Of a stretch of DNA of 64,000 nt, positions 1,801 through 55,586 are shown piece after piece. Made by a program: the position numbers and the translations under genes. The notes below the pieces were generated by a model. That model saw only the letters and a list, made by a program, of their open reading frames with translations, was not told the DNA's origin and did no database searches. The DNA is from an uncultured Spirochaetales bacterium. GTDB lineage: Bacteria > UBP6 > UBA1177 > JAKLFG01. Position 1 is the stretch's first letter; each line of letters opens with the position of its first letter. The stretch lies in contig CAYQBN010000004.1 of NCBI GenBank assembly GCA_964415795.1, positions 35,144 to 99,143 of the forward strand, written 5' to 3'.

Positions 1801-1803
1801 GGT

Positions 1804-2991: not shown

Positions 2992-3005
2992 CCGTTCAAT
3001 GAGAT

Positions 3006-4832: not shown

Positions 4833-4856
4833 AGAGAATCTCCTCTTACCTGATGA

Positions 4857-4885
4857 ACGATACGACCGCCACACCTCATTGTCAA
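4857..4885 (-). promoter_or_regulatory. sigma70-like promoter for the 3006..4832 lipoprotein gene (TTGACA-17-TATCGT on minus strand); the -35 lies inside the ATTGTCAATA motif
   Basis: Reverse complement of 4857-4885. Perfect -35 hexamer; 4/6 match at the -10. Confidence 0.4.
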
Positions 4886-4956
4886 TAGATGAACACTTTT
4901 CTTGCCCGCGAAAAGAGCCGCATTATACTTGCCGCGATCAGTGGCGGAGGAGTTCG

Positions 4957-7124: not shown

Positions 7125-9957
7125 AATGCGCCTCCGTACTCATTCCGCTTCGAAGCGATGCCACATACCACGCCGCATAGGAAGAAACATTAGCCGCACT
7201 ATCGCTCAAGAGGAAGTTGACATCCTCTTCCGAGACTTCGCTCTTCAGGCGAGCGGCCGCATAGAGCGCCGTTTCCCGCACGATGGGCGACGGGTCGTAC
7301 ATGAAGATGCCCACTTTGTCGGCCATGTCGGTGATCCCCTCCGTGGCGATGAGGTACAGCGTCACCGCGCGTACCCAATCGTTGTCGTCGGTCAGGCATA
7401 TTTCGAGAATCTCGTGGTAATTATAGGTCTTTATCTTGAACGAGGCGAATCCCTGCGCGAGCTTCTCGCGTTCGTCGATCGCCTCGACGAGCGGCACGAG
7501 GATGCGCCGTATGTCCTTGTCGACGATGTTATCGATGAGTTCGACCGCCGCCGAACGCTGTTCCTTCGAAACATTCTTCTGCGAAAGATTGAAGTATATC
7601 GAGTCGAACAATTTCTGGCCGTAGATGATGGAAAGAAGAGAGAATATACGGTGTATGCACGAGAGGAGCTTTGACTCCATAACATCGACGAGATAGCGGT
7701 AACGGCTTCCCGCCCTGATCTTCTCCTTGTAGTAGAGATGCTGGAAATAGAGATAGAATTCGCGGTAAAGATAACGGCGTAGCAATGCCTGATCGAGCAG
7801 GACCGCATATTCGGTACGGGCCATGATCCGTTTGAGACTTTCGAGCAATGCGCTCCGCAGCTCGTCGGACTGGTTGTACAAATTTTCCATGAGAAGGGGT
7901 ACCACTTCCCGGGAAGGGATGTCACCGAGCATCTTGGCGACTGCCACCTTGAGTTCGAAGTTCTCGAGGTTGTTCTCGAGGATGCTCTTCGCCGGAGGGA
8001 TAACCCTATCTCCGAATGAGGTAAGCGCCTTTGCTGCGTCGAGACTTACCGCACGGTCGGTAAGCATGAACAACAGTTTAGGGATGACCCCTTCGGCCTT
8101 TACCTTGGTCGCCGCCTTCACCGCCTCGCGGCGCACCTGCGGATCGCGGTCATTGAGGAACTCGAATACCTGCTGCTGCATGTTCTGTTGTCCGATTTCG
8201 CCGAGGATATAGGCGGCAGCACTGCGTCGCTCCGGCTGTGGCGATTCGGCAAGTTTTTTGAGATACGGCGCCGCGGTCATGACACCGGTGATGCCGCAGT
8301 ACTTGATGAGCGCGATGATGGCCGAAGAAAGTATCGGCAGGCTCTCGCTTTCAAGAAAAGATGAGACGACCTTGTGTGACTTCTCCATTTGCATGTAGGC
8401 ATAGGTGAGGATCGCATCCTTGACGACCTCCTCATCCTCGCTCTTCATAAGACGAAGGATGTCGTAGGTGTAGAACCGCGACTCCATGGTGCGGAGGATG
8501 CGCAGTATCTTGGTCTTTACCTTCACCGAAACATTCTCCGAAAGGAGCGGCAGGAAATAGCGCCCGAGGTAGAAGTGGCGTCCTTTTTCGATGAGATCGA
8601 GGGCCATGAGCACCTCGTCCTCGTTCTCCGAGGTCATCGCTTCGACGATGACCGATTCGATCATCGTCTGTTTCACGACCATGTCGTCGCTGCCGATACG
8701 CTTTTTCTTGATGTTGTCCTGAAGAACGGCGAGGTATTCCTTCCGAAGAACGAATATGGCGACTCCCCACAATATGCCGCCGAGCACCACGACGATGCTG
8801 ATGTAGCGGTGCGCGACGCCGAAATAGGAAAAAGTGTAGATCATGAGACCGGCCACACCGGCGACGAGCGGTTTGAGCATGCCGTCAATGACCGCTTTGG
8901 CACGGCTTCGATACTTCTGATCGACGGGGATATAGAGCAATTGCACCGCCGCGTCGTTCACCGTGTAGCGGAACGCGAAATCGGAAGCACGCGCCATCGT
9001 GATGAACCAGATGCCTGGCATCACGAGGAAAAGTGTCGAGAAACCGGTGATCATGGCGGGAAGGATGAGCAGACTGAGGAAAATGCTCCAGCGCAGGAGC
9101 CACGAGGTCGCGACCACTTGGAAAAAGAGCGAGAAGAATCCGCTTGCGAAGGCGTACACCATACCGAAGAAACCGGCAAGTTCCTGTTCGCTGAAGTGCT
9201 CGCGCGCCTCCATCTTGAACTGGTAATCCACGAAGTTCACCAGCGTAAAGGTGAGAATGGTGATGAGCGCAATATGGCGGAAATAGGGCTGGTCGAAGAG
9301 GCGGACCGGCGTGTACGCTTTCGTCTTTTGCACCGAGCGTATCACGACGCTCCGTTGTAGTTTCGACTTGTATACGGCACCGATGCGATACACCAGATAG
9401 ATGCAGAGCCCCATGAACAGCACATTGATGAAGAGAAGGTTCTCGACCCGTACTACATGGACCAGCCACTTCACCGAATAACCGGCAACGAGGCTTGCGA
9501 TGATACCCCCTACCCCGATGAAACCAAGCGTCCGCTTCGCCTCCCGTGAATCGAGGAGTTCGTTGGTGAAACTCCAGAATTGGAAGGTCATGAATGCCCC
9601 GATGACCTCCACGAGCACATAGAGGCCGGGATAACTGAATCGAAACCCCGCATGGATAAGGGCAACGAATATGAGCGTCAGCGCTATGCTCAAAAAGAGG
9701 ACCGCGCGGATGAGGGTATCGAGACGGTAGAGCGAGCTGCGACGCGTATAGAACCAAGTGAGCACCGATACGCTCAGCGCGACCAGAATGTACATAAGCG
9801 GCAATTGGGTGATGTCATAGCGCTTCAGGAATAGCGTATCGCGGATGATGCGCCCCTGCACATAAGTAGCGACGACGAGGAAATTATAGAAGAAGAGCTG
9901 AATCGCCCGCCCCTGTTCCTCCTCACGAATGTTGAGCAGGCGGAAAAAGAACCTCAT
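7108..9957 (-). CDS. TLC/Npt1-like (ATP:ADP antiporter-family, MFS-like) membrane transporter fused to a C-terminal HEAT-repeat domain
   Basis: About 11-12 TM segments with FQFWSFTNE and FxGxG motifs, followed by repeated HEAT/PBS-lyase-like units (DPQVRREAVKAATKV, NDWVRAVTLYLIATEG, PSPIVRETALYAAARL). ATGA overlap with trmL. Confidence 0.65.
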   Translation of the reverse strand: MRFFFRLLNIREEEQGRAIQLFFYNFLVVATYVQGRIIRDTLFLKRYDITQLPLMYILVALSVSVLTWFYTRRSSLYRLDTLIRAVLFLSIALTLIFVALIHAGFRFSYPGLYVLVEVIGAFMTFQFWSFTNELLDSREAKRTLGFIGVGGIIASLVAGYSVKWLVHVVRVENLLFINVLFMGLCIYLVYRIGAVYKSKLQRSVVIRSVQKTKAYTPVRLFDQPYFRHIALITILTFTLVNFVDYQFKMEAREHFSEQELAGFFGMVYAFASGFFSLFFQVVATSWLLRWSIFLSLLILPAMITGFSTLFLVMPGIWFITMARASDFAFRYTVNDAAVQLLYIPVDQKYRSRAKAVIDGMLKPLVAGVAGLMIYTFSYFGVAHRYISIVVVLGGILWGVAIFVLRKEYLAVLQDNIKKKRIGSDDMVVKQTMIESVIVEAMTSENEDEVLMALDLIEKGRHFYLGRYFLPLLSENVSVKVKTKILRILRTMESRFYTYDILRLMKSEDEEVVKDAILTYAYMQMEKSHKVVSSFLESESLPILSSAIIALIKYCGITGVMTAAPYLKKLAESPQPERRSAAAYILGEIGQQNMQQQVFEFLNDRDPQVRREAVKAATKVKAEGVIPKLLFMLTDRAVSLDAAKALTSFGDRVIPPAKSILENNLENFELKVAVAKMLGDIPSREVVPLLMENLYNQSDELRSALLESLKRIMARTEYAVLLDQALLRRYLYREFYLYFQHLYYKEKIRAGSRYRYLVDVMESKLLSCIHRIFSLLSIIYGQKLFDSIYFNLSQKNVSKEQRSAAVELIDNIVDKDIRRILVPLVEAIDEREKLAQGFASFKIKTYNYHEILEICLTDDNDWVRAVTLYLIATEGITDMADKVGIFMYDPSPIVRETALYAAARLKSEVSEEDVNFLLSDSAANVSSYAAWYVASLRSGMSTEAHYAYDG

Positions 9958-10502: not shown

Positions 10503-12284
10503 TTACCTTCCCAGTGACTTATACCACGCCTCGACATCGGCGGCGTATTTGTCAGGCTCGCTCACGGTTACCGAGTGACCTGCCTTTTCGTAGCGTGGCC
10601 AAACGACCGTGCGGGTCACCCCCTCGCCTACCCCTTCGAAAGAGCCGGACACATAGGAGATAGTGAAAGAGTCCTCTCCGACCTCGACACCGGAAACTTG
10701 CGGAAACATCTTCGCCGCTTCGGGTATCGCAGGCGAAAAAATGACGAGATCGAGCGCGGCCTGCGTGATGAAAGTCTCGGTCACGAGAAGGTTCTCGAGG
10801 AACAGCTCGCCGAAGAGGTTGTTGAATGGGTGTATGGTGTGGCGGTAGAAGGCCTCGGTCACCTTTTCATTAAGACTTGCATAATAGGTATCGTAGTCGC
10901 TAAGTGTGCCAAACAGGGAGCGAAACTCTTCCTCGGGGTCATCCTCGCTCGGCGCAAAAAGAAGACGGAGAAGCCATATCTGTCGGTGCGCCCACGGCGA
11001 AAGTGGTTCCGGAGAAATCAGGGAGAATGGCGAAATGGACATGACCGGTGAGGCGATCTTATAGGCATTCTCGCGCTCCTTGGCATACATCGGCGCGATG
11101 AGCACCGGGTCATGGCCGATGAGCGCGACATAGTTCGTGCGGGTGAGAAGCCGCGGGACGATCGGCGTCATGAGGCCGTTCATCCAGCCATCCTCCTCGT
11201 CGTACTTGTAGAGGTCGCGCCCCAGACCGTTCACGAAGAGGATCGCGTTGTAGTACTTGTCGCACTCGGCGTCGTTCGGGTCGCACGGCGTGAAGGTCGC
11301 CCCCTCCTCCGCCGCTATCTGATAGACCACCGAACCGGGCTGTTCGAGCAGTTCGCCCGACGCGATGTTCTGCGCCTCACCAAAGAGAAGCGGCTGAATG
11401 AGCGCCGCATAGCCGAACTGCTTCGCCCGTTTCGCTGGCGTCATTTCTTCCTCGGGGAAAACGGCCGCGTAGTGCGCCGCGATCTCCGCCGCCAGCACCT
11501 CGTCGGTGTAGTATCCCCCCTTCCCCGCATACCGCTCCGGATTGAGCAGAAGGTTCTGGATCACGATGGTGCGGGTGCCGCCGTAGGACTCGCCCGCGAA
11601 GATGACCGGATTGCCGCGGATCGCCGGATGCTCCGCGAGGAACCGCAGGATCACCCGCACGAAATCGGCGCCATCGAGGAAGGGATTGAAGTTGCGGGTC
11701 GAAAATCCCTTCTGCGTCCCGATGATGCTGTAGGAGAAACCGGTGTTGCGCGCATCGATGTAGAGCACATTGGCGAAGCGGGTCCACGCGGCAGGGTTTT
11801 CGCCGACCGGCAGACCACCGTTGAACTTCTCGTCCATGCTCCGGCGGCCGGTGTTGAAGGTAAGCAAAAGCCCCGTCGCCGACCCGGGACCCCCATTGTA
11901 GAAGACGGCGAGCGGTCTTTCCTCCATCTTCTCCTCTGCCGGCACGAAGGCGTACCAGAGCCGCGCCTCGTCGCTCACATACTTCGCTCCGGAAGTACCG
12001 GGCGTCGTGCGGAGGTAATAGGTCACCGGCTCGATGGTAATGAATCCGCTCTCCCCCGCGAAATCACCCGGAATCGTCTCGACATCGGGCAAGAAGGCAT
12101 CGGCGTCATCGCCGCTTTCCTCGGATTCCTCGTCGGCAAGGAGCATATCTTCGTCGGAGGCGATAGCATCCTCTTCGACGACGGAGAGCGCATCCTCGTC
12201 GCTCTTTTGCTTCGAGGAACTCTCACATGAGAAGAGAAACAACGCGAGAAGCGCAAGAACAACCCGCCACGCGACGCGGAACAT
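10503..12284 (-). CDS. peptidase S10 (serine carboxypeptidase)-like lipoprotein
   Basis: Start placed at the internal Met MFRVAWRVVLALLALFLFSCESS with AAGGAGG-N6-ATG. S10 hallmark motifs FYNGGPGSA and IFAGESYGG. Acidic linker after the lipobox. Confidence 0.55.
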   Translation of the reverse strand: MFRVAWRVVLALLALFLFSCESSSKQKSDEDALSVVEEDAIASDEDMLLADEESEESGDDADAFLPDVETIPGDFAGESGFITIEPVTYYLRTTPGTSGAKYVSDEARLWYAFVPAEEKMEERPLAVFYNGGPGSATGLLLTFNTGRRSMDEKFNGGLPVGENPAAWTRFANVLYIDARNTGFSYSIIGTQKGFSTRNFNPFLDGADFVRVILRFLAEHPAIRGNPVIFAGESYGGTRTIVIQNLLLNPERYAGKGGYYTDEVLAAEIAAHYAAVFPEEEMTPAKRAKQFGYAALIQPLLFGEAQNIASGELLEQPGSVVYQIAAEEGATFTPCDPNDAECDKYYNAILFVNGLGRDLYKYDEEDGWMNGLMTPIVPRLLTRTNYVALIGHDPVLIAPMYAKERENAYKIASPVMSISPFSLISPEPLSPWAHRQIWLLRLLFAPSEDDPEEEFRSLFGTLSDYDTYYASLNEKVTEAFYRHTIHPFNNLFGELFLENLLVTETFITQAALDLVIFSPAIPEAAKMFPQVSGVEVGEDSFTISYVSGSFEGVGEGVTRTVVWPRYEKAGHSVTVSEPDKYAADVEAWYKSLGR

Positions 12285-12371
12285 CGGACACCTCCTTACA
12301 CTCAGAAAGCAAACCGACATCAAGACAAGCAACTTGATGCTCCCCACTTTTTTCTCGAATATCGGCAACCG

Positions 12372-12381
12372 ATTGTCAATA
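12372..12381. promoter_or_regulatory. second copy of the ATTGTCAATA motif (the other is at 4878-4887) in the divergent S10-peptidase / giant-protein control region
   Basis: Exact 10-mer shared by two divergent intergenic regions, both flanked by secreted/lipoprotein genes. An inverted repeat CATCAAG-N8-CTTGATG lies nearby at about 12318-12339. Confidence 0.3.
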
Positions 12382-12560
12382 CCAGAGTTAACAGCCACCG
12401 GAACCACATCGTATCTCTTAACCGCCATTTTTCTAACTTTTTCCTCTTGCAATTCATCTTCGTTTCGCATACCGTGATTTCATCAAGGGAACAATGACCG
12501 GTAGAAACAGTGCCTACGCACGATAAGCGGCGTTCATCAACTTTTTCGACGGAGGGCATC

Positions 12561-15500
12561 ATGCGTCGTCTTGCATCGTGGTTGCATCGCAGGGTGAGGA
12601 CTAGCGAGATTGGCGTAAACACTTCTCTTTTTCTGCTGGTGACGCTCTTTGTCTTGCTCGGAACATGGCCTGTAAATCTCTTTTCAGCCCCAACGCTTTC
12701 TCCGATAGAGATAGTGCCCGCACCGGTGGACAACGAGGTAGGCGTTTCTTCGGTAGTGGTGCGCGGAAGTTATTCGGGGGAAAGACCTCTTCGCATTGCC
12801 GTAAGCGGGTGCTTCTCTTCGCCGGTGTATGTTGATCGGGTCATCCGCATTACGAAAGAGGTTTTCGGATATTATGCCCATGGAGTTCCTCTGGGAACAG
12901 GTGGCCCCTGCACGATAACTCTTCAGGAACAAAAACCGAACGGTATGTGGTCAGCCGTGCCGGGGGCGACGACACAGGTTACCTACAATCCTGCCAACAC
13001 GCGTTCTCTTTGGGGGAGGATTGCGAATTCGGGGCCCCATTGGGGAGAAGAACAACGGGCGATTTACTTTTACGCTGGTCCGCGGATTATTGAAGAAAAC
13101 ATGACCATGAGTTATCCGGTAGCCGATGTTTCTCCTCTTTTTCCTCTATTTATCATCGAGCATGGGCGCTTACTTTACCTCCCGCAAAATGCTCCAATTA
13201 TTATTTCACGAAAAGACAATATCGACACCAAAGGCCCCGCTAATCCTCTCGAAGAGTACTGGTCTTCTCCCGAAGGTATCGCAATGTTGTTTCAGGAAAT
13301 AAAGGCTGCGGGTGTGAATATCATCATGTTCACTTGGTGGGGAGACCTTGAAGAGGAGATCTCCGAGGAATTCCCCTCTGCACCTGTAGGAATTCCGGAC
13401 AATTACTGGAAGATATATTCTGCGCCCACATTGCCTAAGACTTGCCGGTACGAACTACGCTTTGCTGAGAATTTTTGCACACAAATCACGGGAGGACTCC
13501 GTTTTGATGCCCCGGCATCGGAAGAGAATCCGGGGATACTCAAGAGATCTCCGTGTGAATGTCAGTGCTCCTGCGAAAATAACCCCTTATGCTGGTATGG
13601 GTTCTGTTCACAGTGCCAATGGAATCCAAACAAGGGCGAGTTTTTTTGTGGCGATGAGAATATGAGTTGTTATTTCAATCTCCTTTGCAAAAGAAAGTGT
13701 ATCTCTGCGGCAGACTGCTCCCCTGGTGAAGACTGTGTGGAAAACATAGTGGAGAACATATGCAAGAAACGCTGTACTAATCAGCCAACAGATTGTCCTG
13801 CCCAAGAAATTTGTGTGGAGGGCTACTGCGAGCCAAATTTTTGCCAACACTTCCCCTATTTTGAAGAAACTTCTTGTTATGAACCATTTAGCGAAGCGGA
13901 CTATCAACAGAGCGGCATCAATACCCACGGAAGACGGTATGATGTCATAGACCAGATGTTCAAAGCGGCCGTTGATGCGGGGCTTTTGGTAGTCCCCGTC
14001 ATGGAATACGATCCTTTTCACTATTTTCTCTACGAATTTCCTCACAATCTTGCGCCTATTCGGAAGAGAATTTCGCAACTTCTTACCAAATATGGTGATC
14101 ACCCTAACTGGCTTTACCTTTATGACAAGGAGGGGTATCCCCGCAAAGCCATTTATCTTTTACAGGCACTTTCGATAAGGCCTGGAATTTATAGAGAGAA
14201 TGGGGTTGATATAGTGATTGGTAAAGAGGACTACGCCAATGCTCTTGACAGCCTTGCGGAAGAGTTCTCTGTGGGATTTATTCTTGATCCTACCGCGCTG
14301 GGGCCAGACTATCAATACGAAAATATGCATACTCCATCGATTGATGAATATCTTCGCATTTCAAGTCTTCTTGCCGTGTCTCCGTTCGGACTGCCGTTCG
14401 CTCAACATCTCACCATTCGAGACAAAGTTCTTACTTGGGCCTCGTCTTCTTCCAGTCCTCTTGAACCAATAGATGAACCAATAGAAGATCATCTGATGAA
14501 TAAGGCGTGGCAGTGGGTGAGCGAATGGAAATCACCTACGGAGGGAAATAGGGTTCCTCTCGTGGTTAATGTGATTCCCGGTTTTGATGATCGCTGGCGT
14601 GCACCAATGTCTCCATCAGTATTCAATGTCTTCGGTGACAACCCTTCATGGCGTGAGCGGAATGCGGCACTCGCGTTCCTTTTTAATACCGCGGGAATTA
14701 GCCTTGCCATCTGGAACGGATATGGCGAAGGGTATGTATGGACCCCTTACCGGAAGCGGTTGTTTCTCCGTGATGAGAGATATCAAATAGACTCTTCTTA
14801 CCAGAGCGGTCCGCTTGCCATTCCGCAAGAGCGCCTCAATCTCATTTTTGCGACTCGGGGAAATCTTCCCCCCGATGATCCGCGGTATATCGGTGATAAG
14901 AACGATCCGCATTATAACGATCCCGTCCATGAAGATCATATCGTGACTGACAATTACTGTTACGCAGGGTACTTGTTCTCGCAAGACGCCGACGGCGACG
15001 GTGTGCCCGATGCCTGTGACAACTGCCCCACCATCCGCAACCCGATGGTGCTCGCGATGGGGGAGGTGGCGTTCGGGTACAACGGGCCTGACGACTATTC
15101 GAACGGGGCGCTGTTCAATCCGAAGACGCGGAAGCACACGAAGACGGTGTGGGGGAAGTTCGGAATTCCCAGTTACTACTGGCAGCCTGACCACGATCTC
15201 GACGGGGTGGGCGACGCGTGCGATCCCGATACGGCGTATGTGAAGCCGCTCGAGGTGGTTTCTCCGCCGATGAAGCAGGGTGCCGACTCATCGCGCACCT
15301 ACATCGCGAACGAATACCTCACGCTCAAGGTGCAGGCGACAACCACGCAGGAGAAGTCGGTTCCAAGCACCAACCGCTATTGCTGGATTACGAAGAACGA
15401 ATATCTCCGAGGTCTCTGGGGCACCCCCGGCTACTGTTCGGTCTACAGGCCGGAACCGGAACCGGGCAAGCCGTTCGTCTGGCAGGCAGGGCGCTCGTTC

Positions 15501-17972
15501 GGCTACAGCCATGGGAGCGAGATAGAACCTGTGCGTCTTGGTAAGCCCGTTTGGCACGAGATGTCGTGGACATTCGATCCCGGTCAGGCGACGACGGTGA
15601 GTCGTGGTGACAATCAGGACAACTTCCCTGCTTCTTTCTATTCCATACTCCTCGGGAAGAGCAGTATTCAGTGGGGTAAGTTCTCTCTCAACCTTGCCGC
15701 GCCGATCGTGCAACTCCACTGGAATTGGAGGGAAGATGTGGTAAAAGATAGAGAAGATTACGCAGCAAACCTTGTTGATGAAGAATTCGATCCGGAGCAT
15801 ACCTTCTACGAGCCTCCCTACCACATCTTCAACCTTGCCGACAACGACTTTTTCTTTGCCTTCTCGACCGGTCCGCGCGACGAGGATTCGGCCCTGAACT
15901 ATCTCAAACCGGAGAACCTTCCCGGCAATGCCAAGGTAAACGAATTCTATTTCCGGCTCAATTCGACCGAAACGACGGGTGGCCCCTATTATCTTCCGCT
16001 GCCGCTCAAGCAGTATGCACGGAGCATCCGGCTCCAGAGCGAACCGATAGGCATCTCGTATCGGCAATTCATCATTGACTCTTCAGCGTTTCTTCAACCA
16101 CCCATTTATTACGATCACTTCAAAGCGAAATGGCGTTACCTTGGACTTATTGATTTTTCCCGTGATCCCGGGCTTGACCATTCAGCCGCCCGTCGCTGGG
16201 ATCTCGTGGAGAACAGCATCGTCGCCCTCGCGAAGTACCACGACGAAAAGATGCTCACGCTCATCGCGGGCGATGATGGCATCACCTACGGCATCCGTCC
16301 CGACGACGATCCGGAGACGCCGGCGACCTTCTGGATCGTGCAGAACCTGCCGACGAGCACAGGCGACTGGGAGCCGATCGGCGTCTTCACCCTGCCGCAC
16401 ACCGACTACGAACTCCTCACCGCGGCCCAGCACGGGGAGGCCTTCTATGCGATCCTCAAGGAGGCGGGCGCGCCAGCGCTCGTTGAAGCGACGCTGAGCG
16501 ACCCCGAGACGGGCGAGTGGACGCTTGCGACGCTTGCGGCGGTGCCGGCGGCGCTCACAAGCCCGACGATCCACTGGCTGGGAGAGACGCTCCATGTGCT
16601 CGGTAGCGACCCATCGGGCATGAAACTCTACCGGCTCGACGGCGGCAACCTCGTGGCGGTGACGGGCGCGCTCGTGCCGCCAACCCGCGACTTCTACAAC
16701 GCCTACGCCTCCGGCGACGCTCTCTACCTCGCCGGCGGGAAGAAGTCGGGCGACATCGTGACCTACCCGAAGGACATCTGGCGCTACACCGCGGGCGCCG
16801 GCTGGGTGAAACTGGCCGACAATGTCAGTAGCGACCTCTTCAAGACCTTCATGCGCGTTTCGGGGAACAGCCTCATCCTCGTCAATCAAGCGCTCGTCGA
16901 AGGGAACATTGCCAGTCGAGTGACCGTTGACCTCACCGCGCCGATCGGGAGTAATGTGACGGTGGACACCGTCGAGGTCTTCGGTCTCTCTCCGGCAGGC
17001 GAGAGCGCCTACTGCCTCGACGAGAACGACGGACTCGTAAAAGGCGGCACGCGCATCGGCGGCTTCTGCCAGCCCTTCACCCACCCGTGGTACCAGTCCT
17101 TCTCGGTCGGCACGACCATCTACAGCGTCGCCGGCAAGGGCAGCCGCCTCTATGTCGGGACGAACTCCACGATCCGCATCTACGACATCTCCGACCCGAA
17201 CGCGCTCACCCTCAAGTACACCTTCACGACCAACAAGCGGGTCTATGACCTCGAGGTGGTGGGTGACACCCTCTACGCGGCGACGAGCGGCGGTCTCTAC
17301 AAGTTCAGCATCGCAAACCCCGACACCCTCGTCCAAGAGAAGTTCCTGAGCACCCCGTACAACTACCAGTACCGGCTCGAGTACTACGACGGGAAGCTCT
17401 ATGTGGGCGATGACAACGGGATCAACATCCGCGACAAGGACACCTTCGCGCGGCTCGCCTATGTGAACTTTGGCTCGGTAGTTGACTTTGCGATAGCGAA
17501 CGGGGAGATAGCGCTCTACTGGTACGTCTTCTGGGACGAAGGGGTGCAGATACGGAATGTCGCGAACCTTGCCCTCAAGGCGTGGGAGTATGGGTACTGC
17601 TCGAGCGGAGAACTGACGACCGACCACGGGGCATTCTACCTCTCCTGCGACAACTACGAGTACCGCTTCGCGGGACGCCCCGACACCTACATTGACTTCT
17701 ACCCGCTCGACGGCGACTGGCGCGAGATGCAGGAGAACCACCTCTACAACGGGTGGGTCTACATCCCAGACGGGAACAAGGTGAAACTCTCGACGAATAG
17801 CGCGGTTCCGAGCATCTGCGGGAACGGGATCGTGGAGCCGGGCGAGGTCTGCGACGGGAACAGTATTGCCTGCGGCGAACTCGACCCGAACCAGTGGAAC
17901 GGCGGCACGGCGACTTGCAACTCGACCTGCACCGGCTACAATACGACTAACTGCTACTGGGGAGGATGCTAA
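12561..17972 (+). CDS. giant (~1804 aa) secreted mosaic surface protein: EGF-like Cys-rich region, thrombospondin type-3 Ca-binding repeats, Kelch/LVIVD-like beta-propeller, C-terminal Myxococcus-type Cys-rich repeat
   Basis: GGAGGG RBS then ATG at 12561 (MRRLASW...SLFLLVTLFVLLG signal/anchor). Cys cluster CECQCSCENNPLCWYGFCSQCQW...CEPNFC. TSP3 repeats DADGDGVPDACDNCPTIRNP and DHDLDGVGDACDPD. LVIVD-like LYVGTNSTIRIYDISDPNAL. C-terminal CGNGIVEPGEVCDGNSIACGE...C. Confidence 0.7.
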   Translation: MRRLASWLHRRVRTSEIGVNTSLFLLVTLFVLLGTWPVNLFSAPTLSPIEIVPAPVDNEVGVSSVVVRGSYSGERPLRIAVSGCFSSPVYVDRVIRITKEVFGYYAHGVPLGTGGPCTITLQEQKPNGMWSAVPGATTQVTYNPANTRSLWGRIANSGPHWGEEQRAIYFYAGPRIIEENMTMSYPVADVSPLFPLFIIEHGRLLYLPQNAPIIISRKDNIDTKGPANPLEEYWSSPEGIAMLFQEIKAAGVNIIMFTWWGDLEEEISEEFPSAPVGIPDNYWKIYSAPTLPKTCRYELRFAENFCTQITGGLRFDAPASEENPGILKRSPCECQCSCENNPLCWYGFCSQCQWNPNKGEFFCGDENMSCYFNLLCKRKCISAADCSPGEDCVENIVENICKKRCTNQPTDCPAQEICVEGYCEPNFCQHFPYFEETSCYEPFSEADYQQSGINTHGRRYDVIDQMFKAAVDAGLLVVPVMEYDPFHYFLYEFPHNLAPIRKRISQLLTKYGDHPNWLYLYDKEGYPRKAIYLLQALSIRPGIYRENGVDIVIGKEDYANALDSLAEEFSVGFILDPTALGPDYQYENMHTPSIDEYLRISSLLAVSPFGLPFAQHLTIRDKVLTWASSSSSPLEPIDEPIEDHLMNKAWQWVSEWKSPTEGNRVPLVVNVIPGFDDRWRAPMSPSVFNVFGDNPSWRERNAALAFLFNTAGISLAIWNGYGEGYVWTPYRKRLFLRDERYQIDSSYQSGPLAIPQERLNLIFATRGNLPPDDPRYIGDKNDPHYNDPVHEDHIVTDNYCYAGYLFSQDADGDGVPDACDNCPTIRNPMVLAMGEVAFGYNGPDDYSNGALFNPKTRKHTKTVWGKFGIPSYYWQPDHDLDGVGDACDPDTAYVKPLEVVSPPMKQGADSSRTYIANEYLTLKVQATTTQEKSVPSTNRYCWITKNEYLRGLWGTPGYCSVYRPEPEPGKPFVWQAGRSFGYSHGSEIEPVRLGKPVWHEMSWTFDPGQATTVSRGDNQDNFPASFYSILLGKSSIQWGKFSLNLAAPIVQLHWNWREDVVKDREDYAANLVDEEFDPEHTFYEPPYHIFNLADNDFFFAFSTGPRDEDSALNYLKPENLPGNAKVNEFYFRLNSTETTGGPYYLPLPLKQYARSIRLQSEPIGISYRQFIIDSSAFLQPPIYYDHFKAKWRYLGLIDFSRDPGLDHSAARRWDLVENSIVALAKYHDEKMLTLIAGDDGITYGIRPDDDPETPATFWIVQNLPTSTGDWEPIGVFTLPHTDYELLTAAQHGEAFYAILKEAGAPALVEATLSDPETGEWTLATLAAVPAALTSPTIHWLGETLHVLGSDPSGMKLYRLDGGNLVAVTGALVPPTRDFYNAYASGDALYLAGGKKSGDIVTYPKDIWRYTAGAGWVKLADNVSSDLFKTFMRVSGNSLILVNQALVEGNIASRVTVDLTAPIGSNVTVDTVEVFGLSPAGESAYCLDENDGLVKGGTRIGGFCQPFTHPWYQSFSVGTTIYSVAGKGSRLYVGTNSTIRIYDISDPNALTLKYTFTTNKRVYDLEVVGDTLYAATSGGLYKFSIANPDTLVQEKFLSTPYNYQYRLEYYDGKLYVGDDNGINIRDKDTFARLAYVNFGSVVDFAIANGEIALYWYVFWDEGVQIRNVANLALKAWEYGYCSSGELTTDHGAFYLSCDNYEYRFAGRPDTYIDFYPLDGDWREMQENHLYNGWVYIPDGNKVKLSTNSAVPSICGNGIVEPGEVCDGNSIACGELDPNQWNGGTATCNSTCTGYNTTNCYWGGC

Positions 17973-19676
17973 ATGATGAAAAGGAACATGATACGCGGGG
18001 GCGGCGATGCCGCCCCCAACTCACCCCAAGCCCCTCTCTTGGCAAGAGAGGGGAAGCGGTTCCCCGGAACGCGGGGTGAGTTCGGATGGGGGATTTTGCT
18101 CTTCTTGTTCCTCGTTGCCTGTTCTTCGACGAAACCGACGACGACCGACGAGAGCGCGTCGGTATGCGCTGGACGGTGCGGGATGGCAGAGGGTGTTCAG
18201 TGCGGTCCGTGCGGCTACGGATACGCCTGCAACGAGAAGGGCTACTGCGTGGAGATTGAGGGGAATGAGAGCGAGAGTGTTGGGAGGAGTGAGGAAGAAT
18301 CTTCCCCTGACGAAGAGAAAGACGAACATCCCGATGCTGACCGTGACACCTACGATCCCGACTGTCCGCCGCTTCTCGAGGCGCAGTTTCCGTTCTACCG
18401 CGAGGATGGGACGATCCACTTCTGCCGGAAGTGTGACACACCGACCGAGAAGGATCCGCAGTGCGTGCAGAATCTCTGGAGGGAGTTAAATCAAAAACTA
18501 GCGCATGATCATCCTGATGTCAGCTGTTACCCCTATCCGTGCGAGATGCCATCTATTACCTCGATGACGAAAGAGGAAGTAGAAGCGGTGTACACCACCT
18601 ATTCCATGCATGAATGCGATTTAATGCTTAATGAGTACGGATGGGTCAATGACTCGACCGGTGGTCAAATCAAGCACTGGAACCTGAGCGGCGGGAAAAT
18701 AGGGTTCTTGATGGATGACAGGATGGAAGTGGATATAACCAAGTATGCCATAGCGGACCAATTCTTTCTCTATGATACCTCATCCACGAAATATTCCGTG
18801 ATAAGTCCCAGCGAGAAGGGTTTCGTTTATCAAAATGGGAAAGCCCTTCTTTATTTCAGAGACAGCCGAAGTTTTGAACTGGGTTTTCCCTACATATATG
18901 TTGGTTATTTCGGCACAGACGGCACCTACCGGGTGGTATTCGACAAGCCGATCTACTCGATACTCTACACGCCTGCTTTGAACGAGAAGTGGGCGTTTGC
19001 GAACATCAATTTCGTGAAGAACGGTACCTCGACGATGTACTACGCGAAGGTGGGCGAATGGAAGTGGACGGCGCTGGGGCAAGGGGTGGCATATTATCCC
19101 GATGTAAAAGGAGACATGCTCGGTTTTTACGACAGCGGAGAAGGGGGGTATATTTGCGATTTATCCCAGAAACCGACCTCGGTGGAATCTTGTCGGAAGG
19201 TGAATCGTGAAGGCGAACCGGCACGAGACATCGTGTTCGATAAGGAGCGTGATGGGATAGCGGCCTATACGAATCTCAGCACGGTATTTTTGGTACGATA
19301 TGACAAGGATCCGATGGAACGCACGGAACTGTTTTCGGACTACACGGGGAAAGCGGAGCATTTTTTGGGTTTCATCGTAAACATGCTGAGAGGTGATGTG
19401 CTGTCGTACACCGAGGTTTATTTCTACGGTGGCGACACCTATGGAGGCCGTGCCTGCTTCTATCGTTTGGACACGAAGAAACGGTACTGCATGAACAAGA
19501 TGGAAGATGACAAGCAGTACTCGGACGGAACGGTGGTTTATCCTTATGGTGACGCCGAATTTGAAGGCAAGTGGTTTCTCTACCAAAAGCAGAACAACTC
19601 CCCGCTCATTCTGCGCGACATGGACTGCTACTGCGCGAAGGAAGGGGTGTGTCCGTTCGAGGGGTTGAAGCGGTAG
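17973..19676 (+). CDS. Cys-rich hypothetical lipoprotein (lipobox LVAC-S), probable partner of the giant protein
   Basis: Starts 1 nt after the giant gene's TAA. N-terminal CxxxC/CGPCGYGYAC cluster, acidic linker, then an aromatic-rich beta domain. Lower-GC segment 18.48-19.7 kb. Confidence 0.6.
   Translation: MMKRNMIRGGGDAAPNSPQAPLLAREGKRFPGTRGEFGWGILLFLFLVACSSTKPTTTDESASVCAGRCGMAEGVQCGPCGYGYACNEKGYCVEIEGNESESVGRSEEESSPDEEKDEHPDADRDTYDPDCPPLLEAQFPFYREDGTIHFCRKCDTPTEKDPQCVQNLWRELNQKLAHDHPDVSCYPYPCEMPSITSMTKEEVEAVYTTYSMHECDLMLNEYGWVNDSTGGQIKHWNLSGGKIGFLMDDRMEVDITKYAIADQFFLYDTSSTKYSVISPSEKGFVYQNGKALLYFRDSRSFELGFPYIYVGYFGTDGTYRVVFDKPIYSILYTPALNEKWAFANINFVKNGTSTMYYAKVGEWKWTALGQGVAYYPDVKGDMLGFYDSGEGGYICDLSQKPTSVESCRKVNREGEPARDIVFDKERDGIAAYTNLSTVFLVRYDKDPMERTELFSDYTGKAEHFLGFIVNMLRGDVLSYTEVYFYGGDTYGGRACFYRLDTKKRYCMNKMEDDKQYSDGTVVYPYGDAEFEGKWFLYQKQNNSPLILRDMDCYCAKEGVCPFEGLKR
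18031..18053. repeat. near-perfect 11-bp inverted repeat CCCCTCTCTTG-g-CAAGAGAGGGG (strong hairpin) inside the first ~80 nt of the lipoprotein ORF
   Basis: Read directly from the sequence at 18031-18053. The arms are exact reverse complements. Confidence 0.6.
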
Positions 19677-19688
19677 CGCCGAAAAGAT

Positions 19689-19717
19689 TTGACAAGTGCT
19701 TTCTCTTCGGGTAGTAA
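19689..19717 (+). promoter_or_regulatory. sigma70-type promoter for tRNA-Val (TTGACA-17-TAGTAA)
   Basis: TTGACA at about 19689-19694, 17-nt spacer, TAGTAA at about 19712-19717, roughly 12 nt upstream of the tRNA 5' end. Confidence 0.45.
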
Positions 19718-19729
19718 GGGTCTGTGCGT

Positions 19730-19805
19730 GGGCGATTAACTCAGCTGGTAGAGTGTCTGCGTCACATGCAGGAAGTCGCAGGTTCGAGTCCTGCATCGCC
19801 CACCA
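19730..19805 (+). tRNA. tRNA-Val (anticodon CAC)
   Basis: Hand-folded cloverleaf. Acceptor GGGCGAT/ATCGCCC, D-stem ACTC/GAGT, anticodon loop GUCACAU, T-loop TTCGAGT, encoded CCA. 76 nt. Confidence 0.85.
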
Positions 19806-19837: not shown

Positions 19838-20245
19838 ATGTCCGTACCGCTTTCCGAAGAGTATCGCGTGAACATCAGGGTGCTCGACGAACACCATGAG
19901 CGACTCTTCAACATGATCGAACGCCTGCGAGCCGCCGTCGCCGAAGGCAGAGGCCGCGAAGAGGCCGAAAAGATCCTCGGAGAACTGTGCGACTACGCCG
20001 AAGAGCACTTCTCGGTGGAAGAAGGAATGATGAAAGAAGCGAAGTATGCCGCCCTTTCGGCACACCGGGTCGCCCACCGCGAGTTCATTAGCCAAGTAAG
20101 AGAGATGATGACCGAATCGGCAAAAGGAAAAAAGAATACGCTTTCTCTTGAAATTGCCGCATTTCTCAACGACTGGCTCCGGAAGCACATCCGGATAGCC
20201 GACCAACAGTATGCTCCGCTACTGAAATCAAAAGGCTATAAATAA
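19838..20245 (+). CDS. bacteriohemerythrin (single-domain O2/NO-binding hemerythrin)
   Basis: Four-helix hemerythrin H...HxxxE...H...HxxxxD ligand pattern (HHERLF, HFSVEE, HRVAHREF, HIRIAD). GGGAGG RBS. Confidence 0.75.
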   Translation: MSVPLSEEYRVNIRVLDEHHERLFNMIERLRAAVAEGRGREEAEKILGELCDYAEEHFSVEEGMMKEAKYAALSAHRVAHREFISQVREMMTESAKGKKNTLSLEIAAFLNDWLRKHIRIADQQYAPLLKSKGYK

Positions 20246-20276
20246 CAGATAGTTATAAATTTTTACAATTCCCCGA

Positions 20277-20308
20277 TTGACTTTTGTCCACCATTAGACT
20301 ATAAGTCT
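20277..20308 (+). promoter_or_regulatory. sigma70 promoter of the efflux operon (TTGACT-17-TATAAG) with a 5-bp inverted repeat AGACT-ATA-AGTCT overlapping the -10 (candidate TetR operator)
   Basis: Sits in the AT-rich 115-nt gap upstream of the TolC-like gene. The inverted repeat was read directly from the sequence. Confidence 0.5.
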
Positions 20309-20360
20309 TACCGACTTTTTTATTTTTTTGGTCTTTCATTATAATCGTTGTGAGGTATCC

Positions 20361-21725
20361 ATGCGTTGGAAGAAATCTTGCCTACCAATGCTGGTCGCCC
20401 TGTGCGGACTAGCTATGCCTCTTTTCGCTCAAGAGCGCCTGAGTCTCGACCAGTGCATCGCCATCGTCACGCGGGAAAGCGAAACGCTCCGCTCCGCCGC
20501 CGTCTCGAAAGAAGCGGCGCAGTTCGACGCCGACGCCACCTTCTGGAACTACTTCCCTACCGCCTCGATCAGCGTCAACTACCTCAAACTCTACTTCGAG
20601 CCTGAGCCGGAAAAGATAGAGATACCGAGCATCCCCGGAGTGACCGACGGTCTTTCGGGGGCCTTCGACATCCCCGAATGGAACCGCACGCTCGACATCA
20701 CGGTGGCCCAACCGGTCACGCCGCTCTGGAGCGTCTGGAAGGGACACGACGCCAAACGACTGGCCGCCGAGATAGCCGCCTTCAAACAGCAGGCGACCAC
20801 CGCCCAGATCGCCGCGCAGACCGCGGAGTACTTTTACTCCTATCTCATGCTCGAACGCTTCGAGGCGCTCATCGCCGAAAGCGAAAAGCAACTTGACCGC
20901 TACGCCGCGCAGGCGCAGAACTTCGTGGACGCCGGCCTTACCGACAAACGGGCGGTGCTCAAGGTTTCCATCGAGAAAGCGAAACTCGCCAAGGAGAAGG
21001 AGCAGGTGCGCGGCAACAAGGCGCTCGTCCGGCGCGCGCTCGCACTGCTCATGAACCGCGCCGAGGAGAGTTTCGAACTCGAGTATCACGAGGCCGATCT
21101 CGTGCCGCTCGCCATCGACCGGACGGAACTGACCGCTCTTCAGAAGAAGAACCGCCCCGAACTGCGGATGCTCGAACGGCTCGACCGGATCGCGGACGAC
21201 CTTTCCGACATCGCGGTACAGCCGCTCGTGCCAACCGTGGCGCTCACCGGCGGCTACCGGCACAACTTCGACTCGTCGCTCGTGAGCCCGGAGGGCACCT
21301 TCTTCGTCGGCGCCGTCCTTTCGTGGAACTTCGGCTTCGACACCCTCAAGAACATCGCCGCCTACCGCAAGGCGCGGAGCGAGAAGACCGCAACCCTGCT
21401 CGCCAACATCGACGCCCGCAAGCAGATGGACCTCCAGTTGTCGAGTCTCCACAGCGACCTCATGGTCAAGGAAAAGGAGATCGCCATCGCACAGGCCTCC
21501 ATCGAGGCGGCGGCGGAGAACCTCCGCATCGAAGAGGCGAAGTATCAGGAGAAGATGACCACCGAGACCGACCTCCTCGCGGCGAACCTGCAGGAGCGGC
21601 AGGCGAAGACCTCCTACATCACCGCGGTCTTCCAGTACAAGATAGCGCTCTGGAAACTCGCCGCCGTCATTGGCGTTCCGGTCGAACGGCTCACCGGCGC
21701 ATCGAACAAGGGAGGTGAACGATGA
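20361..21725 (+). CDS. TolC-family outer-membrane efflux protein
   Basis: Signal peptide MRWKKSCLPMLVALCGLAMPLFAQ. Duplicated coiled-coil/beta-barrel OEP architecture. The ORF-track start at 20328 is a TTG and is rejected. Confidence 0.7.
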   Translation: MRWKKSCLPMLVALCGLAMPLFAQERLSLDQCIAIVTRESETLRSAAVSKEAAQFDADATFWNYFPTASISVNYLKLYFEPEPEKIEIPSIPGVTDGLSGAFDIPEWNRTLDITVAQPVTPLWSVWKGHDAKRLAAEIAAFKQQATTAQIAAQTAEYFYSYLMLERFEALIAESEKQLDRYAAQAQNFVDAGLTDKRAVLKVSIEKAKLAKEKEQVRGNKALVRRALALLMNRAEESFELEYHEADLVPLAIDRTELTALQKKNRPELRMLERLDRIADDLSDIAVQPLVPTVALTGGYRHNFDSSLVSPEGTFFVGAVLSWNFGFDTLKNIAAYRKARSEKTATLLANIDARKQMDLQLSSLHSDLMVKEKEIAIAQASIEAAAENLRIEEAKYQEKMTTETDLLAANLQERQAKTSYITAVFQYKIALWKLAAVIGVPVERLTGASNKGGER

Positions 21726-22399
21726 ACGACCTTTCCGAAAAGAAGGACCTCATCATCGCCAACTTCATCAAACTGGTGCAGGAGTACGGCATCAACCGGG
21801 TGACACTCTCCGATGTCGCCCAGCGGAGCGGCCTCACCAAATCGGGGCTCTACTACTACTTCGATTCGAAAGAAGGGCTCTTTCTCGAGACGCTCAATAC
21901 GGTCTACACGAAGATACGGCAGATCGTCGAACGAGATATCGAGCCGATCGCCGATCCCATCGCCAAGATCCATCACTTCATCACCCTGCAGGTGGAGATA
22001 TTCTCCGACGAATCGCTCGGCCTGTCGTTCCTGTCCCACTGTTCTCTTGACATGATGGAAGAGATAGAGCGATTCATCTTCAGTTCTCCGGCACTCGTCG
22101 CGCGCATGACCGAAATACACCGATCCGAGCAACGCTATCTGGAACAACTGCTTTCACCGATACTCGTTCCGCGCGGCATCCCTGAAGCAGAGATACGGCG
22201 GCGCGCATCGCTCTTGTTCCTGCTCATCGAAGGATTTCTCTACATGAGTCGAAAGGTCGCCTCGGTAGCGCACACGGCGGACGATGTCCGTGAGATCGTC
22301 GGTGATGCCGATATCGCGTCCTTTCTTGCCGAGACTTTGGCGACCGGCGTGGTGGGAGAGGCGTTTCGTTCCCAAGATCAACGGAGGATCAATCCATGA
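21722..22399 (+). CDS. TetR/AcrR-family transcriptional regulator
   Basis: N-terminal HTH (VTLSDVAQRSGLTKSGLYYYFDSKEGLF). ATGA overlap with the tolC-like gene. GGGAGG RBS. Confidence 0.8.
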   Translation: MNDLSEKKDLIIANFIKLVQEYGINRVTLSDVAQRSGLTKSGLYYYFDSKEGLFLETLNTVYTKIRQIVERDIEPIADPIAKIHHFITLQVEIFSDESLGLSFLSHCSLDMMEEIERFIFSSPALVARMTEIHRSEQRYLEQLLSPILVPRGIPEAEIRRRASLLFLLIEGFLYMSRKVASVAHTADDVREIVGDADIASFLAETLATGVVGEAFRSQDQRRINP

Positions 22400-23547: not shown

Positions 23548-23557
23548 GGAGGCGATC

Positions 23558-55581: not shown

Positions 55582-55586
55582 GCTGA

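Follow-up and report, generated by a model that had tools for sequence, protein, structure and literature searches.

A candidate modular surface hydrolase and its lipoprotein partner, encoded by a recombining gene pair of an uncultured bacterium

INTRODUCTION

What is the function of a gene pair that encodes an exported protein of 1,803 amino acids, assembled from very different modules, and directly behind it a cysteine-rich lipoprotein? The pair lies within a stretch of 64,000 nucleotides (the window). The reading that we prefer, whose chances we judge to be evenly balanced, is that the two genes are one co-expressed unit comprising a modular, exported, surface-associated hydrolase (the giant) and its cognate lipoprotein partner, and that this unit is recombining. 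Alternative readings are weighed below, each beside the evidence that bears on it.

RESULTS

The gene pair and its neighbours

The giant gene occupies positions 12561-17972 of the forward strand, and its product is identical to the database protein P0001. Its TAA (17970-17972) abuts the ATG of the lipoprotein gene at 17973, leaving a gap of 0 nt, and the latter gene (17973-19676, forward strand) then encodes 567 aa. Both open reading frames, and their direct succession, are as given in the preliminary description. The Shine-Dalgarno sequence of the lipoprotein gene, GGGAGGA, can be read at 17959-17965 of the forward strand, within the last codons of the giant gene. Co-expression is proposed because of the 0-nt gap and the position of this element, and from this layout the genes are predicted to be translationally coupled.

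On the 5′ side a region of 276 nt, read from the sequence (12285..12560), separates the giant gene from a divergent gene on the reverse strand (10503..12284); a promoter scan of this region found no consensus sigma-70 site. The divergent gene encodes the S10 serine-carboxypeptidase-like lipoprotein that had been noted there. It matches Pfam PF00450 (Peptidase_S10) with an E-value of 3.6e-21 (76.5 bits, cutoff 21.9), with only profile positions 21-149 of 420 aligned, and has both a GESYGG motif (catalytic serine) and a lipobox, LFLFS-C. A tblastn search of 16 related loci found no match to it, and from the gene order in these loci we place it outside the giant-lipoprotein unit. On the 3′ side tRNA-Val(CAC), found by ARAGORN and Rfam, lies at 19730-19805 of the forward strand, just after the lipoprotein gene as described earlier, at a spacing of 53 nt from the stop; it is a neighbour, linked to the unit by position alone. 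The flanks are housekeeping genes.

Export and the N-terminal head

The translation of the giant begins with a signal peptide (aa 1-47; 12561..12701, forward strand) that has a basic n-region and a hydrophobic core and ends in LFSA before a proline; relatives have a classical signal peptide, MKKIIFLI...IFA, at the aligned position. Export of both proteins is proposed because of this signal peptide and the lipobox of the partner, and for the giant would proceed by Sec. The giant itself lacks a membrane anchor, and no sorting signal known to direct proteins across an outer membrane was found in it; HMM searches for a type IX secretion C-terminal domain were negative. A diderm cell is indicated by genes for a TolC-like OEP and an RND pump in the genome.

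After the signal peptide comes what would be an interchangeable head, composed of a small β domain and a large barrel. The first (aa 48-147; 12702..13001, forward strand) is probably a β-sandwich; AF2 model 1 places its strands within residues 50-142 at low confidence (pLDDT 46-83), and in the identity profile it is 94-98% identical to that of the closest relative, L007. The barrel (aa 148-806; 13002..14978, forward strand) was modelled with a pTM of 0.83, and a fold search with the predicted model identified a (β/α)8 fold closest to solved GH99 structures, so that the glycosidase-like α/β region suspected earlier is borne out at the level of fold. Its conserved acids are E482, D522, D576, D676/D677 and E723, and the near-invariant E482, D576, D676/D677 and E723 are located at or just past the predicted strands 476-481, 571-575, 667-671 and 712-715. 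The barrel is common to ∼95 representative clusters at 50% identity. Stand-alone homologues bear CBM6, CBM35, LGFP, dockerin, Por_Secre_tail and PEP-CTERM modules, assigned by sequence, which are typical of secreted carbohydrate-active enzymes.

While the fold resembles that of GH99, the sequence does not. Identity is 12-15%, the profile of the barrel family matches PDB GH99 sequences with an E-value of just 0.3, and Pfam Glyco_hydro_99 (PF16317) gives no match to the window protein even at E ≤ 10; among 50 remote homologues three match this model, all below threshold (best 23.5 bits, cutoff 33). A weak HMM alignment sets PGFDDRWR opposite GPGYIDTRIR and WNGYGEG opposite FNEWHEG. In BxGH99 the general base E333 and the acid E336 are contained in the motif NEWHEG (PMC6055899). 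In the weak alignment, E336 corresponds to the invariant E723, and E333 to G720, which is near-invariant throughout the family of 57 sequences; in the window motif W718-N-G720-Y-G-E723-G the acid is kept and the base is replaced by glycine. Since the GH99 general base is absent, activity, mechanism and substrate are not transferable from GH99, and if the barrel is an enzyme its mechanism and substrate would be new. The barrel could instead be a non-catalytic glycan-binding domain. In the reading that we prefer, the head would cleave or bind an extracellular glycan.

The barrel differs from GH99 also in being fused to a scaffold of 1,000 aa and in carrying a cysteine-rich insertion of 126 aa with 20 cysteines (aa 315-440; 13503..13880, forward strand), modelled with low pLDDT. 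These are the clusters formerly called EGF-like; the cysteines are there, but none of the EGF-family HMMs of Pfam and NCBIfam matched aa 315-455 at E ≤ 10.

The C-terminal scaffold

The remainder of the giant would form a conserved scaffold behind the head. It starts with two thrombospondin type-3 calcium-binding repeats (aa 807-892; 14979..15236, forward strand), DADGDGVPDACDNC and QPDHDLDGVGDACD, with DxDxDGxxDxxDxC motifs at aa 809 and 877. The preliminary description had counted at least two such repeats, and these two pass Pfam TSP_3 (PF02412) with 41.4 bits against a cutoff of 25, the matches covering aa 809-829 and 875-890 (nt 14985-15047 and 15183-15230). The motif is that of eukaryotic thrombospondin and COMP; the giant differs in having two repeats only, and searches with Pfam detected no EGF, TSP-1 or C-terminal lectin-like thrombospondin domain in it.

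The repeats lead into a middle domain (aa 893-1210; 15237..16190, forward strand), delimited by alignment, that contains the invariant motifs FGYSHG and WNWR.D and has no match in PDB or Pfam. Two propellers follow. The first is a Kelch-type β-propeller region (aa 1211-1490; 16191..17030, forward strand), whose family profile matches the solved Kelch domains of KLHDC3 (E 6.5e-9) and KLHDC10 (E 1.8e-6); relatives score above the cutoffs of Kelch_1 and Kelch_4, and the window sequence alone has no Pfam match there. The second, probably an LVIVD-type β-propeller (aa 1491-1750; 17031..17810, forward strand), is better conserved than any other part of the family, with 52-80% identity to relatives. 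LVIVD (PF08309) scores 12.5 bits in the window copy against a cutoff of 20.2, and matches nine of nine orthologous segments at E ≤ 1 (best E 5.5e-7). The propeller previously described as Kelch or LVIVD thus stands at the level of the family and not for the window copy by itself.

The protein terminates in a small module, a putative cysteine knot (aa 1751-1803 plus the stop codon; 17811..17972, forward strand), with seven cysteines in an invariant pattern, CGNGIVEPGEVCDG.... Its earlier assignment as a Myxococcus-type repeat is not supported: TIGR02232 scores 17.9 bits, below its cutoff of 20.8, aligns positions 4-20 of 38, about half of the repeat, and is present in a single copy where this repeat (TIGR02232/PF13948) normally occurs as several in tandem; PF13948 gives an E-value of 1.7.

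Exchange of the head among relatives

The same scaffold is found behind other heads. These are papain-like (Peptidase_C1) in L017 and L089, gingipain-like (Peptidase_C25), propeptide included, in L026, L035 and L044, and of no known type in L013, L020, L033, L048 and L082. Since the recognized N-terminal modules are all hydrolase folds (GH99-like, C1 and C25), surface-displayed enzymes are favoured; for the papain-like and gingipain-like heads the substrate would be protein. Gingipain-type proteases are likewise large exported proteins, in which a catalytic module precedes adhesin or binding domains. The giants share this order, an exported hydrolase fold followed by non-catalytic binding domains, but differ in having a TSP3/Kelch/LVIVD scaffold, an adjacent lipoprotein gene and no detected type IX secretion domain.

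Of the functions suggested in the preliminary description, the heads thus support the processing of a matrix or other substrate, and adhesion or aggregation is less favoured. A polymorphic adhesin or kin-recognition receptor, with a lectin barrel, the variable segments V1 and V2 (described below) setting partner specificity and the lipoprotein as co-receptor, is in our view rather unlikely. There is a precedent in Myxococcus, where polymorphic TraA together with TraB sets partner specificity in outer-membrane exchange. The giant shares with MtsC, TraA, TraB and TIGR02232 proteins of Myxococcus the TSP3 repeats and a CGNG..E..E.CD-type cysteine motif, and both are polymorphic, recombining surface-type proteins with an adjacent partner gene. 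TSP3 repeats, propellers and cysteine-rich modules are typical of adhesion, close relatives differ in hypervariable recombining segments, a partner gene adjoins every giant locus for which flanks are available, and the general base of GH99 is absent from the barrel. The best NCBIfam match of the giant is indeed the cell-cohesion protein MtsC (NF047638), but its 26.7 bits are far below the cutoff of 350; the TIGR02232 cutoff is not reached either, and the giant has neither MYXO-CTERM nor another sorting tag. The hydrolase folds are a further difference from the Myxococcus proteins, and catalysis fits better both with peptidase folds as alternative heads and with acids on the face of the active site that are invariant across V1 alleles of 31-37% identity.

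The lipoprotein and its pairing with the giant

The translation of the partner contains the lipobox LFLVA-C50-SS, with C50 invariant in 43 homologues, and the protein is on this basis a bacterial lipoprotein with predicted lipid modification. An acidic linker and 13 further cysteines, all invariant in the family, complete its recognizable features. Its family numbers 214 clusters or more and has no Pfam domain, and a profile of 43 sequences found no match in PDB. The lipoprotein too is mosaic; compared with P0118, aa 281-360 are 100% identical and aa 401-480 are 23-38% identical.

Every giant locus for which flanks are available has a homologue of the lipoprotein gene directly beside the giant gene. 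The pair is thus conserved and exported by prediction, in keeping with the earlier proposal of an unannotated unit. Seen from the lipoprotein the association is looser. Among 80 metagenome loci retrieved by means of the lipoprotein a scaffold gene was adjacent in 26, with the gene order of the window in 19 of these; at 12 of 38 fully informative lipoprotein loci there was no scaffold gene within 10 kb, and a close homologue (63% identical) adjoins a 5′-nucleotidase gene instead. The lipoprotein is thus not exclusive to these giants.

Lipoprotein identity correlates with that of the middle and Kelch segments of the giant (Spearman 0.71 and 0.81) and not with that of the C-terminal module (0.28), a co-variation with middle and Kelch that is confounded by shared ancestry; L012, L048, L004 and L013 are discordant. 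Within the clade of the window it is loose: compared with L005 the lipoprotein is 52% identical and the middle segment 24%. This pattern is consistent with the preferred reading, in which the lipid-anchored, disulfide-rich lipoprotein would bind the scaffold in its middle and Kelch part, and may thereby hold or position the enzyme on the surface of the cell.

The pairing also recalls polymorphic toxins, with variable hydrolase heads directed at competitors and the lipoprotein as an immunity protein that protects the producer. Like Rhs, CdiA and MAF systems, the family has exchangeable enzymatic modules on a conserved carrier beside a small-family partner gene, recombination between lineages and occasional tandem arrays (L082), and some copies lie beside mobile-element genes (IS21 and a resolvase at L017; an insertion with a 722-bp repeat on either side at L001). 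We nevertheless consider this explanation very improbable. The variable toxin module of Rhs, CdiA and MAF-type toxins is C-terminal, whereas here it is N-terminal, straight after the Sec signal peptide. At 500-600 aa the lipoprotein is large, it is often found where there is no giant, and its type does not follow that of the head: GH99-like heads occur with both lipoprotein classes, and the lipoprotein of the C1-head locus L017 is 57% identical to that of the window. The marks of a toxin-immunity pair, a C-terminal variable toxin and an immunity gene that co-varies with it, are thus not seen. Nor is there evidence of a phage origin or a defence function; PADLOC gave no match, and IMG/VR contained no scaffold or lipoprotein relatives.

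Mosaic composition and recombination

The patchy GC content that had been remarked upon is real, and is seen at synonymous sites. Calculated per 100 codons, GC3 of the giant gene is 0.40-0.55 over aa 1-800 and 0.81-0.94 over aa 1201-1803; the background, taken from the 32 other genes of the window, is 0.713 ± 0.079, and just two of its 166 blocks are at or below 0.50. Compared with L007 the gene consists of three blocks of 89-95% nucleotide identity, parted by two variable segments for which blastn found no nucleotide similarity. V1 (∼aa 171-668; 13073..14565, forward strand) has a GC content of 0.46 and a GC3 of 0.45, and V2 (∼aa 1008-1208; 15584..16184, forward strand), inside the middle domain, a GC content of 0.51. 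The steps in GC3 agree with this block pattern in two independent assemblies, those of the window and L007.

V1 is 31-37% identical in amino acids to every relative. However, V1 of L007 and that of L005 are 74% (amino acid) and 78% (nucleotide) identical where the flanks of L007 and L005 are just 52-54% identical, so a segment of V1 type has moved between lineages. Elsewhere the converse is observed; P0004 and P0006 are 88-98% identical over the C-terminal 300 aa and 4-37% in their middle regions. These comparisons strongly support domain shuffling or horizontal acquisition. That explanation had been offered for two AT-rich stretches, and it can be located for one of them: the stretch at 13.1-14.5 kb is exactly the segment replaced relative to L007, while that at 18.5-19.7 kb could not be linked to the variable segment of the lipoprotein. 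In the preferred reading the family evolves as recombination reassorts three or more units: first the head (or just V1, its core), second the middle and Kelch segments along with the lipoprotein, and third the C-terminal propeller plus cysteine module. Surface-exposed proteins that face diversifying selection or changing substrate demands typically evolve as mosaics of this sort.

Two other origins of the composition were weighed. The pair might have been newly acquired on a mobile element integrated at tRNA-Val, which it adjoins, and cassette mobility is indicated in other genomes (L001 and L017). We regard this as highly improbable. The annotated neighbours within the window include no integrase, the 3′ end of the tRNA is not directly repeated in its 64 kb with up to three mismatches allowed, the flanks are housekeeping genes, a cluster of RND efflux genes lies beside the giant in both the window and L003, and there are no relatives in viral contigs. 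The anomaly is moreover intragenic, block-wise and common to L007, with GC3 of the C-terminal half above the genome mean. An integrase gene and such a repeat would be the marks of a tRNA-integrated island.

The mosaic might alternatively be chimeric, since all family sequences are metagenome assemblies of uncultured organisms, in which several paralogues may be present per genome or sample and conserved blocks might mislead assemblers into joining paralogues or strains. This we think quite improbable. The frame of 1,803 codons is unbroken, the domain order is complete in all members of the family, GC3 follows the same block-wise pattern in the two independent assemblies, and mosaic relations are found among many independent assemblies of different studies. 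The shared blocks are merely 89-95% identical and therefore offer few long exact k-mers.

DISCUSSION

If the preferred reading is true, the pair is a new surface-enzyme architecture in abundant uncultured anaerobes, in which a shared scaffold and a matching lipoprotein receive plug-in catalytic heads. Such giant-lipoprotein display would be distinct from cellulosomes, from type IX secretion cargo and from Sus-like systems. The ∼95 clusters of the barrel would be a candidate new glycosidase family, and the lipoprotein family, which no Pfam model or solved structure matches by sequence, would be an untouched one. The giant gene would further provide a clear case of module-level recombination between lineages inside one gene, with a compositional footprint visible by eye.

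A bolder version, possible but in our estimate doubtful, is that the pair represents a display system not recognised before, in an unplaced bacterial lineage found in rumen, sludge and other metagenome samples. The TSP3-Kelch-propeller scaffold held by the lipoprotein would be a platform for recombined hydrolase heads, one of which founds a GH99-related family with a different catalytic apparatus, and the near-identical C-terminal propeller and cysteine module would be a handle for some machinery of export or attachment.

Gene organization and genomic context

The gene layout put forward in the preliminary description is borne out by the ORF table, translation and tRNA scan. The giant gene runs from an ATG at 12561 to 17972 and encodes 1,803 aa. 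Its TAA (17970–17972) abuts the ATG of the gene for the 567-aa Cys-rich lipoprotein (17973–19676), giving the 0-nt gap that had been reported. The GGGAGGA Shine–Dalgarno sequence of the lipoprotein gene is embedded in the last codons of the giant gene, and from this and the abutting codons, co-translation of the two from a single mRNA is almost certain. A tRNA-Val(CAC) lies next to the pair (19730–19805), and on the other side a gene for a 593-aa S10-like protein is transcribed divergently from a start at 12284 (Peptidase_S10, E = 3.6e-21, with a GESYGG motif and a lipobox). The promoter scan found no consensus promoter in the spacer between the divergent genes, and synteny of the S10 gene is not kept in relatives.

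The remaining genes are housekeeping genes (rpoD, dnaG, pnp, der and others) together with an RND efflux operon, and the window is thus chromosomal DNA of a diderm anaerobe. The only Rfam elements in the window are two tRNAs. A 135-aa ORF (19838–20245) located 33 nt past tRNA-Val appears hemerythrin-like by eye, and an AT-rich region (20001–20400, GC about 0.44) precedes the RND efflux operon (20328–26695). Another of the few stretches with GC below 0.47 (29401–29700, GC 0.44–0.45) lies where two divergent ORFs meet, at 28669–29580 (−) and 29562–30788 (+). The 949-aa protein encoded at 7108–9957 (−) is an unusual fusion in which HEAT repeats are joined to a TLC ATP/ADP-transporter domain. The window also contains genes for an arylsulfotransferase (3006–4874, −) and a sulfatase (53686–55638, −), which hint at the handling of sulfated substrates.

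Conservation of the giant–lipoprotein pair

The giant has few full-length relatives, nine clusters with 30–41% identity among 5.8 billion proteins. Each is from a metagenome-assembled genome, yak rumen being one source, and the closest record bears the label 'uncultured Spirochaetales bacterium'. Homology searching with a profile of the scaffold, i.e. the unit from the thrombospondin type 3 (TSP3) repeats to the C-terminus, returned at least three proteins. Publicly, family members are annotated as 'hypothetical protein' or 'thrombospondin type 3 repeat-containing protein'.

The pair is conserved as a unit, as had been proposed, with a lipoprotein homologue directly beside the giant gene in every related locus with flanking DNA. 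The lipoprotein gene is upstream of the giant gene in loci L001–L004 and L009–L013, whereas L005 and L017 have it downstream, the order seen in the window. The lipoprotein family is the larger of the two, with at least 214 clusters. In a survey of 80 metagenome loci retrieved via the lipoprotein, a scaffold-type giant was adjacent in 26, with the window gene order in 19 of these 26 and giants on both sides or in tandem in four. Twelve of the 80 had no giant despite flanks of at least 3 kb on each side, and a further 42 were informative on at most one side. The giant is therefore always found with the lipoprotein, but the lipoprotein is not always found with the giant. In L018 (142–6873) a 63%-identical lipoprotein homologue is clustered, without a giant, with a 5′-nucleotidase gene and two further genes for lipoproteins, and one of these two contains an internal duplication. 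A single contig in L082 (1–17606) carries the tandem arrangement lipoprotein, giant, lipoprotein, giant (with a GH99-like head), lipoprotein. That the two proteins form a toxin–immunity pair seems to us highly improbable; PADLOC returned no match.

Co-variation was analyzed for 15 giant–lipoprotein pairs (105 pairwise comparisons, confounded by shared ancestry). Lipoprotein identity tracks that of the middle (Spearman 0.71) and Kelch (0.81) segments of the giant, with a coefficient of 0.28 for the C-terminal module. The discordant loci are telling. L012 combines a class-I lipoprotein and middle and Kelch segments like those of L001–L003 with a C-terminal module shared with L048. In L004 and L013 the lipoprotein is of class II, yet the C-terminal module is that of L001–L003, at 92–93% identity. 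These sequence correlations, confounded as they are by common descent, suggest the middle/Kelch part of the giant as the working partner of the lipoprotein.

Domain architecture

Several of the modules named in the preliminary description are present. Two TSP_3 repeats (at aa 809 and 877) pass the Pfam cutoff (41.4 bits against 25), and the family profile of the Kelch propeller matches solved Kelch domains (E = 6.5e-9). The LVIVD segment scores 12.5 bits against a cutoff of 20.2 in the window copy, and each of the nine orthologous segments gives a match (best E = 5.5e-7). Two further assignments fell short of the HMM thresholds. The C-terminal CGNGIVEPGEVCDG module, described as a Myxococcus-type repeat, reaches 17.9 bits against 20.8 for TIGR02232 and comprises only half a repeat; the supposed EGF-like cluster is a 126-aa insertion (aa 315–440) with 20 Cys that no EGF model matches. 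Against PDB sequences the middle-domain profile found nothing, and the sole match of the C-terminal profile was a WD-repeat (E = 0.022). The lipoprotein has no relative in Pfam, NCBIfam or the PDB (the last searched with 5- and 43-sequence profiles), and hhalign detected no relationship between it and the scaffold.

The barrel head

A profile of aa 436–808, searched against 1.84 billion proteins, yielded 95 representative clusters, mostly of stand-alone proteins of 400–550 aa. Among the accessory modules they carry are LGFP, CBM6, CBM35, dockerin, Por_Secre_tail and PEP-CTERM, and by these they look like secreted carbohydrate-active enzymes. The shared domain has no Pfam model, and a broad barrel profile matched nothing among PDB sequences. 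AlphaFold2 modelling of the N-terminal half (aa 1–894) with a 7-sequence alignment gave a pLDDT of 47.7, and was replaced by a model of aa 144–810 based upon 57 sequences (pLDDT 73.4, pTM 0.83). In a Foldseek search with this model the first 37 matches were all GH99, in keeping with the glycosidase-like region that had been suspected. The predicted head is GH99-like in fold and constitutes a distinct, uncharacterised family.

By sequence the similarity to GH99 is a hint only (E = 0.3), with PGFDDRWR aligned over GPGYIDTRIR and WNGYGEG over FNEWHEG. In BxGH99 the general base is E333 and the acid E336 (PMC6055899). In the weak alignment the acid position corresponds to the invariant E723 of the head, whereas the place of the base is taken by a glycine that is nearly invariant in the 57-sequence family. 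Further near-invariant acids are E482, D522, D576 and D676/D677, each of which except D522 sits at a predicted strand of the barrel or immediately past one. Neither activity nor substrate can be inherited from GH99.

We consider it about an even chance that the locus encodes a co-expressed exported pair, in which a modular hydrolase on a scaffold of TSP3 repeats and Kelch propeller would act, probably at the surface, with a lipid-anchored, disulfide-rich partner. The lipoprotein would probably tether or position the giant. A polymorphic adhesion or recognition receptor, with the barrel acting as a lectin, is unlikely. The components of the hydrolase–lipoprotein pair are familiar (secreted multidomain hydrolase, lipoprotein, mosaic surface gene); the scaffold, partner family, barrel family and mode of recombination appear undescribed, and we found no account of this domain combination in the literature searched.

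Exchange of heads and segments

The heads of scaffold proteins differ, and the unit from TSP3 to the C-terminus is thus a scaffold that various hydrolase heads share. The L013 protein (1,552 aa) has only aa 809–1803 of the window protein in common (34% identity), with a different N-terminal part. Papain-like Peptidase_C1 heads occur in L017 and L089, and gingipain-like Peptidase_C25 heads with a propeptide in L026, L035 and L044; those of L013, L020, L033, L048 and L082 match nothing. Two serpin genes directly follow the giant gene in L013 (17918–20791), which is curious given the cysteine peptidase heads found elsewhere in the family.

Compared by blastn with L007, the closest relative, the window has three blocks of 89–95% nucleotide identity (12548–13072, 14566–15583 and 16185–17161). 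Between them lie the variable segments V1 (13073–14565) and V2 (15584–16184), which have no nucleotide similarity to L007 and amino acid identities of 20–48% and 32–44%, respectively. The AT-rich stretch noted previously is real and corresponds to V1, which is low in GC in both alleles (0.46 and 0.44; GC3 0.45 and 0.42). GC3 is 0.87 and 0.85 for the conserved C block in the two assemblies, against a background of 0.713 ± 0.079; GC is clearly not uniform, even when amino acid composition is allowed for. In every relative examined (L001, L003, L005 and L006) GC3 climbs along the giant gene, from its 5′ head to its 3′ end, despite differing genome GC, for example from 0.24–0.36 to 0.44–0.48 in L001 and from 0.37–0.54 to 0.78–0.89 in L005.

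V1 of the window is equally distant from every known relative (31–37%). V1 of L007 is 74% identical in amino acids and 78% in nucleotides to that of L005, compared with only 52–54% for the flanks, and this is direct evidence that the segment was transferred between lineages. Together with the swapped heads it upholds the suggestion of domain shuffling or horizontal acquisition. The related proteins P0004 and P0006 are 88–98% identical in their last 300 residues and 4–37% in the middle, and the lipoprotein is itself a mosaic relative to P0118 (100% in aa 281–360, 23–38% in aa 401–480). That assembly chimeras account for such mosaics is improbable. Whole modules are exchanged as the family diversifies. 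Local gene conversion, as in antigenic-variation systems, is unsupported within these 64 kb, where neither gene has a paralogue or silent cassette to act as donor.

Mobility

A tRNA-linked island deserves very little credit as an explanation of the locus, for despite the adjacent tRNA-Val the window contains neither an integrase nor a repeat of the tRNA 3′ end. No relatives of the pair were found on viral contigs. An RND efflux cluster is a neighbour of the pair here and in L003 alike, an arrangement that speaks for a long-standing chromosomal position in this clade. Outside the window the cassette does look mobile, at L001 and L017. In L001 the 3′ end of valS occurs twice, as a direct repeat of 722 bp (4183–4904 and 15478–16199, 94.5% nucleotide identity) that brackets a 10.5-kb segment. 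A SIR2_2 gene accompanies the lipoprotein and giant genes in this segment, which from its sequence resembles an insertion with duplication of the target. In L017 the pair, a giant gene with a papain-like head and its lipoprotein gene, directly follows an IS21 element (transposase and IstB) and a gene for a resolvase at 169–4288.
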